The notes beneath the pieces were generated by a model that searched no databases, was not told the origin of the DNA, and saw only the letters and a program-made list of their open reading frames with translations. From the IMG/VR virus record IMGVR_UViG_3300036770_007999, positions 14,137-78,136 of that record: DNA of 64,000 bases. The stretch is one strand, 5' to 3'. The stretch is from a virus. A program made the translations under genes and the position numbers. This document shows, in pieces, positions 56,300-57,990 of this stretch. Every line of letters begins with the position of its first letter. Position 1 is the first letter of the stretch.

Positions 56300-56740
56300 A
56301 TGACATGGCTCTACGAATCACAAGAAATCACAGAAATACCTCAAGAGTATGCCGGGTTTGTGTATCTCATAACCAATACACAGACTGGCAGGAAATATAT
56401 TGGCAAAAAATTATCAAAGTTTAGCAAGACGACATACCGGACAGAGAAACTCAAGAACGGCAAGAAACGACGTAAAAAAATCAGAGGCAAGATCGAGTCA
56501 GACTGGCAGACCTACTACGGTTCGTCGCCAGAACTCACCAGAGACGTAGAATCACTAGGCACAGAAAATTTCACACGCGAGATATTGTATTACTGTAAGA
56601 GCAAGGCTGAATGCAGTTATATAGAGGCTCGAGAACAATTCGCCCGTAGGGTACTTGAATCAGACGAATACTACAATGGTCACATACAGATTCGGGTACA
56701 TGGCTCACACATCAAAGGCAAACTAGGCTCAAACGGCTAG
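56300..56740 (+). CDS. Stand-alone GIY-YIG nuclease domain protein
   Basis: GFVYLITN..KYIGKK, YYGSS, REIL..E, YYN; basic insert KNGKKRRKKIRGK; no C-terminal DNA-binding domain. Confidence 0.8.
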   Translation: MTWLYESQEITEIPQEYAGFVYLITNTQTGRKYIGKKLSKFSKTTYRTEKLKNGKKRRKKIRGKIESDWQTYYGSSPELTRDVESLGTENFTREILYYCKSKAECSYIEAREQFARRVLESDEYYNGHIQIRVHGSHIKGKLGSNG

Positions 56741-57222
56741 CACCGGCCAAAATCGGGTGTCCTAGACCTGGATCTCGGATCACAGGGATGGAAGCCTCGC
56801 CGCGCCAGCGAGCACTCAACCACTACCCGCAAGGATGACGACGTCTCTAAGACCTGACGTTTGGTTGTTGGAAAAGGACGAAAGGCAAAATGAGGGGAGA
56901 GAAACCCCACGGCTACTGTTGTGATAGCGTATGACAGTAGACCCGCCGTTGTGATAAGACGGAGCGAGCAGGTACCGGACAACCGCCTGTAATCGCACAA
57001 AAAAATGTGTGACTAACCAGATAATTTGGCGTGATTCGTATAGTTTTTTGTGTGAATAGTTCTAACGCTGTGTGACTGCGCCACTCGGATGATGCAGATC
57101 TTGGCCCGGCCACGGGCTAAGTGTGACCACTTGATCTGGATGATACTGCATACTCGCTTCGCTCGTTTGATTCAATCCATCGATGAACGGAGTGAAATCG
57201 ATAGACTTGCGCAGCAAGTCTC
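56741..57222 (+). ncRNA. Putative large structured non-coding RNA/element (~480 nt)
   Basis: Only large gap in the window; more than 10 adjacent hairpins, several needing G-U pairs on the + strand; twin GTGTGAC-N10-GGATGAT motifs. Confidence 0.6.
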
Positions 57223-57555
57223 TTAGAACTGATCGGGCCAATCTCTCCAAAGTGCGTGTTGAATGTTTCCTGCAACAAACCGATTGAAACTTTTGTGTTT
57301 CTCTTCGAGTTCGCCTTCCAATGGAGCGACGCGACGGAATGCCTGATCCATCTGTGCCATGTCACGGAACTCCATAATAATAAGCCATTCTGGCATGTCT
57401 GCGATGCTGCGGAACCCCATCTTGCAGCGAGTGATTCTGTAGGTCTCCATCTTGCCCTCTGCTATCAAATGGTCAAAAAAGCCTTTCATGCCAGTGACCC
57501 ATTCTAGATCTGTGATGTCACCTTCTTTGTCCGCCCAAATAGTGTAGAGATCCAT
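57223..57555 (-). CDS. Small alpha/beta protein (DUF6614-like by recollection)
   Basis: YTIWAD..GKMETYRITRCKMGF..EWLIIMEF..ALWRDWPD. Confidence 0.55.
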   Translation of the reverse strand: MDLYTIWADKEGDITDLEWVTGMKGFFDHLIAEGKMETYRITRCKMGFRSIADMPEWLIIMEFRDMAQMDQAFRRVAPLEGELEEKHKSFNRFVAGNIQHALWRDWPDQF

Positions 57556-57990
57556 TTATTTCATTGCTCCCAAGATTTCAAATCCTGTGATGTCTAACAT
57601 GTAAGGTTCCAATGATTCAAAATACATCCATTGAAATCCTCGATCACGATATATTGCACACTCTGTTTCCAGGCTGTGAATGCCTAATCTAAGAGCAGGA
57701 TCACGATAGTCCCAGGCAAAATGATCACTGAGCACAGAATGTGTGCCCCAACAACGCAGCATGGTCCAGGCCACTAGTTTGCCTTGATGTCGATAACCAA
57801 TCACATCGGTGCCGGATTCTCTGAAACGCTCCGGCACCATGGGTATCACGCTCTGGAAGTGCTTGTGTCGGCAGTAGTCTCTGTAGATGCGCAGCAGTTC
57901 ATGTATCGGCGGATCTTTCAACAGTTCCCAATCAGTATTGATCTCATAATTGGTCTTTACTAGATTGATGCGTCCAAACTGCCAACTCAT
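57556..57990 (-). CDS. GNAT protein resembling the C-terminal domain of arginyl/leucyl-tRNA-protein transferase (ATE1/Bpt)
   Basis: YRHQGKLVAW..FAWDYRDPALRLGIHSLETECAIYRDRGFQWMY. Confidence 0.6.
   Translation of the reverse strand: MSWQFGRINLVKTNYEINTDWELLKDPPIHELLRIYRDYCRHKHFQSVIPMVPERFRESGTDVIGYRHQGKLVAWTMLRCWGTHSVLSDHFAWDYRDPALRLGIHSLETECAIYRDRGFQWMYFESLEPYMLDITGFEILGAMK

Follow-up and report, generated by a model that had tools for sequence, protein, structure and literature searches.

What is encoded by two GTGTGAC-N10-GGATGAT cassettes flanking a hairpin in the DNA of an uncultured phage is the question raised by this locus, and the original prediction read them as a pair of protein-binding modules that present variable, guide-like 10-nt inserts. 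The stretch analysed (64,000 nucleotides, hereafter the window) belongs to a 78-kb T4-like contig with a completeness estimate of 22%, which carries genes for gp47/gp46-like SbcCD, a baseplate hub and a gp5-like lysozyme. Both cassettes lie inside a 482-nt gap between a GIY-YIG gene on the plus strand and a convergent DUF6614 gene on the minus strand (Table 1). Their twin character holds, as the copies GTGTGAC-TGCGCCACTC-GGATGAT and GTGTGAC-CACTTGATCT-GGATGAT are exact and are set at a period of 51 nt in the window (51-58 nt in phages generally and 65 nt in Rhodobacterales). With up to two mismatches allowed, the pattern matches four times in the 64-kb window (0.77 expected by chance), while with fewer than two mismatches the exact two copies stand alone in the window as well as in the 78-kb contig. 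The 9-bp stem described between them is likewise present (CUUGGCCCG/CGGGCUAAG, 57100-57108 with 57113-57121, one G-U), and its last G doubles as the opening base of the second GTGTGAC.

Scanning of IMG/VR with the twin pattern yielded 21 other contigs, and a search with the DUF6614 protein yielded more than 590 loci, 80 of which were fetched. A homologue of window positions 56730-57230 was found by nhmmer in about 96 of the 100 fetched loci (the 21 found by pattern and about 75 found by gene), and conservation was counted over 64-67 distinct variants. Absence of the motif from homologous loci had been named in advance as grounds for refutation; the motif is present, with its constant parts nearly invariant. 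The RNA occurs once per genome in four large relatives, one of which is a 91%-complete genome of 316 kb. Neither blastn of the RNA against 50,697 cultured or deposited phages nor tblastn of DUF6614 against 50,697 deposited phage genomes gave a match. A covariance model of the twin-box module (R1) found no credible match in Cronobacter phage GAP32, Escherichia phage 121Q or Agrobacterium phage Atu_ph07, the best in GAP32 (E = 0.2) being a 120-nt gap without boxes. The DUF6614 protein shows 84-91% identity across the 80 fetched phage loci, and the 144-aa ORF adjoining it (both within 57223-57990, minus strand) gives a weak match to ATE_C (aminoacyl-tRNA-protein transferase, E = 0.003).

The conserved segment fills the gap between the two convergent genes, with its 5' end at the GIY-YIG stop codon, and near-full-length homologues were recovered by nhmmer in most of the fetched phage loci. 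Folding of 56990-57230 against shuffled sequences gave z = -4.8 for the plus strand and z = -2.6 for the minus strand, and the covarying helices contain G-U pairs compatible with the plus strand only; since such pairs become C-A mismatches on the opposite strand, the RNA is read from the plus strand. At the level of comparative sequence analysis, the existence of a plus-strand RNA of ~490 nt is thereby established. An Rfam scan of the whole 64-kb window found a single family, RF01718 (the Polynucleobacter-1 motif), which covers the first 136 nt of the RNA with model positions 1-141 of 141; its score exceeds the gathering score of 37, and a GOS11034 / PSSM2_218-like gene lies upstream. This motif was described from 16 sequences, without a function, and mostly downstream of such a gene (PMC2864571, supplement). 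Among the homologues, three 5' domains can be distinguished (class A, that of the window, being Polynucleobacter-1, and classes B and C being two others), while the 3' domain with the cassettes is common to all three classes. On these comparative grounds, the cassettes make up the twin-box module, which forms part of the 3' domain of a full-length, predicted pseudoknotted, orphan Polynucleobacter-1 RNA. A promoter and terminator scan showed no sigma-70-like promoter before the RNA and no canonical terminator. A third GGAUGA(C/U) is present at 56835-56841 within the Polynucleobacter-1 domain (CC-GCAA-GG-AUGAC); this word is the same as the box in 12 loci, yet it does not follow the changes of the twin boxes.

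Table 1. Coordinates of the genes, the predicted RNA and its elements in the window
Feature	Position	Strand	Evidence
SegE-like GIY-YIG protein, 146 aa, upstream neighbour	56300-56740	+	Pfam PF19835, E = 4e-34; phrog_447
Whole predicted non-coding RNA, ~490 nt	56735-57222	+	nhmmer homologues, fold z, G-U pairs
5' domain, Polynucleobacter-1 motif (RF01718)	56735-56870	+	cmscan, 108.4 bits
Hairpin with loop UAGCGU (56925-56930), in predicted pseudoknot with 57065-57070	56913-56940	+	pairs in 38 class A sequences
Stem CAGG/CCUG with conserved 13-nt loop UACCGGACAACCG	56969-56989	+	alignments; common to classes A and B
Variable hairpin with the 'third degenerate copy' (57007-57025)	~56990-57056	+	outside the conserved motif
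Pseudoknot 3' strand, ACGCU + G; G57070 is the first base of the cassette 1 GTGTGAC	57065-57070	+	
Cassette 1: (G)UGUGAC, spacer UGCGCC, invariant ACUC, box GGAUGAU (57087-57093)	57070-57093	+	
Weak helix CUGC (57076-57079) / GCAG (57094-57097)	57076-57097	+	
Central hairpin between the cassettes	57100-57121	+	compensatory changes
Cassette 2: (G)UGUGAC, spacer CACUUG, invariant AUCU, box GGAUGAU (57138-57144)	57121-57144	+	
Hairpin AUCGAU-GAACGGAGUGAA-AUCGAU with tandem G-A motif	57179-57202	+	covariation
Terminal hairpin AGACUUGC-GCA-GCAAGUCU, abutting the DUF6614 stop codon	57203-57221	+	compensatory changes in 7 pairs
DUF6614 gene, convergent	57223-57555	minus	

Each cassette emerges from a helix. 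The pseudoknot is marked by a change from G-C to A-U at 56929/57066 in 2 sequences and by U-G, U-A and C-G pairs at 56925/57070 (38 class A sequences), whereas the central hairpin shows compensatory changes in seven of its nine pairs and many G-U pairs, with 93.8% of the alignment cells paired and none of 500 shuffles matching its score. Cassette 1 begins at the 3' end of the pseudoknot and cassette 2 at the 3' end of the central hairpin, and with the initial G of each GTGTGAC forming the closing pair of its helix, the two start in equivalent places; the central hairpin spaces the two boxes 51-65 nt apart. The weak helix within cassette 1 would place ACUC and box 1 in a hairpin loop. For this modelled helix, permutation of partners in the phage alignment matched the score in 2 of 500 cases and composition shuffling in 68 of 500, and its equivalent is clear in Rhodobacterales (AUGAC/GUCAU and AUGACAG/CUGUUAU). 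Pairing of GUGU with AUGC and with AUAC, by which each cassette had been thought to display its insert, did not survive comparison, since 74% of the cells are paired against 75% after shuffling and 467 of 500 shuffles score at least as well.

The degenerate third copy of the cassette is indeed in the sequence; nevertheless it is not conserved and sits in a variable hairpin, which occurs only in the window and in its two nearest relatives, locus L023 and, partly, L022. Elsewhere unrelated hairpins take its place, and metagenome contigs with such replacements show 56989>57057 joints. Downstream of the cassettes, the hairpin with the tandem G-A motif has compensatory changes in all six stem pairs and in two inner pairs and is kept in the Rhodobacterales copies. 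In many homologues this hairpin (GAUGAACGGAGUGAAAUC) resembles the hammerhead core UGAUGAG...CGAAA. A hammerhead ribozyme has an invariant unpaired core, CUGAUGA...GAAA, and three stems around the cleavage site. That identity was rejected: the positions corresponding to CUGAUGA differ among homologues (UCAUGAG, UAACGAG, UGUUGAG) and change together with the 3' strand, there is no Rfam match, and the supposed core bases behave as a plain stem closing a tandem G-A motif with a 2-bp triloop tip. The terminal hairpin did not pass a simple terminator scan.

The conserved unit differs in its borders from the cassette as first drawn. Over the 64-67 distinct variants, it opens at a helix end with N-R-UGAC, followed by 6-8 nt, by ACUC or AUCU and by the 7-nt box N-S-A-U-R-A-D; in 64 variants ACUC of cassette 1, AUCU of cassette 2 and the A, U and A at positions 3, 4 and 6 of the box are invariant, and UGAC plus the next base is nearly so. 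The last four bases of the supposed insert thus belong to the invariant part, whereas the first two bases of GTGTGAC vary. Flanks invariant around an N10 that varies at constant length had been the proposed check by alignment; the homologues instead show flanks that vary in part, inserts that are invariant in part (four of ten bases, with 4-5 variable at 1.4-1.9 bits each) and spacers of 6-8 nt in cassette 1 and 6 nt in cassette 2 (7 in class C). The insert is no more variable than the neighbouring loops, no 7-nt complement of the second insert occurs anywhere in the RNA, and nine distinct phages have both spacers in common while differing in linkers and hairpin loops. Because of this partial invariance, and because these nine phages share both inserts though their loops differ, the N10 segments appear to be length-constrained spacers, unlike the spacers of guide arrays, and the reading of them as guides is not upheld. 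What stands of the original prediction is the picture of two equivalent RNA modules facing a partner; the part presented would be the box and not the N10. On the alignments, the element that resembles a recognition word is the 7-nt GGATGAT, previously taken for a constant flank.

This assignment follows from the manner in which the box varies. Eight forms occur (GGAUGAU, GGAUGAA, GGAUAAU, AGAUGAU, AGAUGAA, AGAUGAG, AGAUAAU and ACAUGAA), and in 63 of 64 rows the same form is found in both cassettes. When the tree is built with the box columns left out, the two boxes require minima of at least 14 and at least 15 changes, and on well-supported branches 4 + 3 + 2 independent pairs were counted, 9/9 of them concordant between the boxes. 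Boxes differ even between sister loci, as in the pairs L092/L102, L036/L037 and L042/L059. At the variable box positions, the information shared between twins amounts to 0.73/0.81, 0.40/0.40, 0.76/0.76 and 0.89/0.89 bits, against 0.33-0.61 bits for the best other column of the 3' domain. Position 7 is U, A or G and never C; positions 4-6 are always UGA or UAA. The only loci with differing twins, by one base each, are L045 (GGATGAT / AGATGAT) and L240 (GCATGAT / GTATGAT, the second Roseicyclus copy), and these may be intermediates of in-step change or decaying copies. That two separated 7-nt words mutate together at least 14 times points to an outside reader of both.

The rule is also kept outside phages. 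Scanning of one genome per prokaryote species, with confirmation by the R1 model, recovered Rhodobacterales copies in Nereida ignava CECT 5292 (two, diverged), Rhodovulum bhavnagarense DSM 24766, a Roseicyclus MAG (two), Ascidiaceihabitans and a Rhodobacter MAG, as well as copies with the RF01718 5' domain on two Methylococcales MAG contigs. With a pattern that made no demand for identity, the box was GGAUGAG twice in Rhodobacterales and AGAUGAA twice in Methylococcales. The Rhodobacterales RNA is ~630 nt long with 80-83% identity between genera. The island copies are L133 (Roseicyclus MAG, 8 kb), L153, L162, L158/L241, L161 and L196, two of the hosts being cultured strains; the 4.7-kb Methylococcales contig L196 also carries a group II intron fragment at 12-85 (RF00029, 50 bits). 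Tyrosine integrases (188-250 aa, and a second of 500 aa) adjoin the Rhodobacterales copies, a serine resolvase and an NYN nuclease are found on the Methylococcales contigs, and ParD-ParE and RHH-ParE pairs, a Dam methylase and restriction-modification fragments are further neighbours. Among 101 sampled genomes of the family, the RNA was present in one, namely the Roseicyclus genome on which the sample was centred. In view of this sporadic occurrence and the recombinase surroundings, in bacteria the RNA looks like cargo of mobile islands and not like a core gene.

The explanation that best accommodates these observations, held tentatively at a probability of about 0.4, is that the boxes are two docking sites for one co-evolving outside partner, likely a dimeric RNA-binding protein or RNase. 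The RNA would serve as a rigid scaffold that displays one short single-stranded word in duplicate. Its single outside reader, most probably a dimeric protein or RNase that binds RNA sequence-specifically with one half on each box, would drift in specificity together with the box and would be held or sequestered by the RNA or would cut it. Such an outside reader is suggested because the boxes stay identical through many changes while no complement is present in the RNA or in nearby DNA. Exact twins, phage-wide conservation, in-step change, a covarying scaffold and the maintenance of the rule in independent lineages all count in its favour. Against it stand the large number of switches that a protein would have to make (at least about 8-14, at four positions), an easier matter for base pairing, the one-base differences of L045 and L240, and the possibility of a helix between the cassettes (UCGGAU/AUCU-GA) in 63 of 67 sequences.

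Adjacent genes offered no evident candidate for the partner. Four neighbours (GIY-YIG, DUF6614, the ATE_C-like ORF and a 177-aa ORF) contain no residue that convincingly tracks the box; the best mutual information was 0.2-0.72 bits against box entropies of 0.76-0.95 and looks clade-driven. In about 50 of 60 loci the RNA is immediately preceded by the GIY-YIG gene, and in ~15% of phage loci the upstream ORF is of another kind: an ORF of 217-356 aa without a Pfam family in L019/L020, L036, L037, L043, L073, L074, L076 and L100, and a PDDEXK_15 nuclease (PD-(D/E)XK) in L021. Homologues of the GIY-YIG protein are encoded in 492 deposited phage genomes, including those of Melnitz, phiN3 and P-HM2, and in these three, which were inspected, the RNA is absent behind the gene. 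Since homologues thus occur without the RNA behind them, GIY-YIG is probably a neighbour and not the partner.

Base pairing by the boxes themselves is the first rival and is regarded as unlikely. Here the twin boxes, perhaps with the adjacent spacers, would pair with two copies or strands of a DNA or RNA word at which a mobile-element nuclease or recombinase acts, akin to bridge RNA loops or tigRNA spacers. A drifting base-paired target would give in-step change most cheaply, the bacterial occurrence is sporadic and sometimes in two copies, and the RNA travels with GIY-YIG or PD-(D/E)XK proteins in phages, with tyrosine integrases in Rhodobacterales and with a serine resolvase and NYN in Methylococcales. 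However, no 6-7-nt complement of the box is present anywhere in the RNA, no consistent extra copy or complement occurs within the ~3-kb flanks, and the window contains the complement at 19 sites, no enrichment over the 14 expected. Sites of the box or its complement were also compared at homologous places in genomes of 316, 178 and 160 kb from three phages whose boxes differ; the DNA proved too diverged for the comparison to discriminate, as only 1-9 sites each time had a homologue and the RNA's own boxes were unmapped as well. In addition to the missing complement, 7 nt confer little specificity, the spacers are not hypervariable (only 4-5 nt vary), the neighbouring enzyme is inconstant with GIY-YIG homologues widespread in the absence of the RNA, and the records searched contain neither a Nop nor an IS110 protein.

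A structural role carries similar weight, which is to say that it is doubtful: the boxes would take part in the RNA's own tertiary fold, or in a homo-oligomer interface as in ROOL, GOLLD and OLE. The inter-cassette helix, together with non-canonical UGAU/UGAU contacts, could serve as an example, with symmetry of the fold keeping the boxes alike. RNAalifold predicts this helix with 98% of the cells paired and with a change from G-U to A-U in 17 sequences, the RNA has a dense pseudoknotted fold elsewhere, and position 7, being never C, always has a possible pairing partner in the invariant U4 of the opposite box. Nevertheless, the helix lacks compensatory changes and in class C two of the six pairs are broken, direct pairing predicts complementary and not identical change, and no proposed contact requires the same base at position 1, 5 or 7 of both boxes.

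Far less probable is a new RNA-guided system of mobile elements, in which the RNA would align two copies or strands of one word for a resident nuclease or recombinase; by analogy, it would follow the logic of bridge RNAs with another fold and other enzymes (GIY-YIG, PD-(D/E)XK, tyrosine or serine recombinases). An element acting as DNA is more improbable still, whether as origin iterons (the alternative offered in the original prediction) or as two recombination cores with a matching 7-bp overlap. Tyrosine recombinases require identical overlap regions, the direct repeats have identical 7-bp cores, and recombinases adjoin the bacterial copies. The plus-strand RNA, however, is the better reading, by the compensatory changes and the G-U pairs through which the surrounding helices keep pairing only in that strand; there are no inverted-repeat arms at the boxes and no recombinase near the RNA in the T4-like phages, and two direct sites 51 bp apart would merely delete the hairpin.

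Box C/D K-turn or K-loop modules bound by L7Ae/Nop, with the insert as guide, can hardly be entertained, for although UGA and GAUGA resemble box D and box C and the tandem units recall C/D plus C'/D', neither GA is universal (GGAUAAU in 14/64 variants, ACAUGAA in 5/64), the flanks lack C-stem complementarity with closing pairs equal to shuffled controls, the insert lies between the D-like and C-like boxes instead of upstream of a D box, and no L7Ae or Nop domain was found in 6 phage records.

The RNA occupies one spot in hundreds of uncultured giant T4-like phages as well as bacterial islands, it is among the larger orphan RNAs of phages with only its first third catalogued, and the in-step mutation of two separated 7-nt words is a rare evolutionary signature. 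The identity of the reader would assign a function to the Polynucleobacter-1 family and might reveal a new use of RNA by mobile elements, as a sponge, scaffold or guide. The newly found copies beside recombinases in islands of cultured Rhodobacterales (Nereida ignava CECT 5292 and Rhodovulum bhavnagarense DSM 24766) open the question to bench tests.

Among known systems, box C/D RNAs and the tigRNAs of TIGR-Tas share with this RNA short constant boxes, two tandem units and occurrence in phages. Box C (RUGAUGA) and box D (CUGA) form tandem sheared G-A pairs beside a Watson-Crick stem, and the guide of 10-21 nt lies directly upstream of box D or D'. Here, by contrast, no tandem G-A is conserved, GGAUAAU and ACAUGAA each destroying one GA; the variable bases lie downstream of the D-like UGAC, with a covarying helix (pseudoknot or central hairpin) upstream; the units are embedded in a 490-nt fold; and the varying part is the box, identically in both units. 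As had been observed for the window, no Nop-domain protein is visible: searches for PF01798 (Nop) and PF01248 (L7Ae) matched the control genomes but nothing in the 78-kb contig or in 5 related records, of which one is 91% complete. The proposed equation of UGA and RUGAUG with boxes D and C is accordingly set aside, and membership in the box C/D, TIGR or bridge RNA groups fails for lack of a universal GA and of a Nop, L7Ae or IS110 gene. TIGR arrays consist of ~36-nt units with two distinct spacers each, which differ between units and strains (bioRxiv 10.64898/2026.09.09.750476). The present locus, unlike these, has two units only at a period of 51-65 nt, one locus per genome and spacers that are not hypervariable, so that a TIGR array was rejected on the two units and on the nine distinct phages with the same spacers.

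With GOLLD, ROOL, OLE and CsrB/RsmZ, the RNA shares its character as a large structured non-coding RNA of mobile elements with repeated single-stranded motifs, and no Rfam match to any of these was obtained at E < 10 in the region. GGAUG resembles the CsrA SELEX core. Unlike CsrB/RsmZ-type sponges, however, this RNA has only two sites, and the GGA of the box is not conserved, being lost in the AGA and ACA forms, on which CsrA GGA loops were rejected. Other identities were discarded likewise: the box variants speak against a Shine-Dalgarno mimic, pairing of GUGUGAC with GUCACAC of 16S rRNA conflicts with conservation of UGAC only, and anticodon-loop pairing would need A32. IS110 bridge RNAs are similar in logic alone, as two loops of one RNA share one short core word in a mobile-element context with DNA-cutting or DNA-joining enzymes nearby. 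They differ in that the DEDD transposase (PF01548) is absent from 5 phage records, the flanking 3 kb contain nothing that matches the loops and neither a copy nor a complement that changes in step, and the neighbouring enzymes differ by locus. The likeness to Polynucleobacter-1 (Weinberg et al. 2010, Genome Biol 11:R31) extends to freshwater-type sequences and to the GOS11034 / PSSM2_218-like gene upstream, here the small GIY-YIG gene; whereas the Rfam model ends at 56870, the conserved RNA extends ~350 nt further and includes the predicted pseudoknot, the twin-box module and two 3' hairpins, all of which are additions to the family as described.
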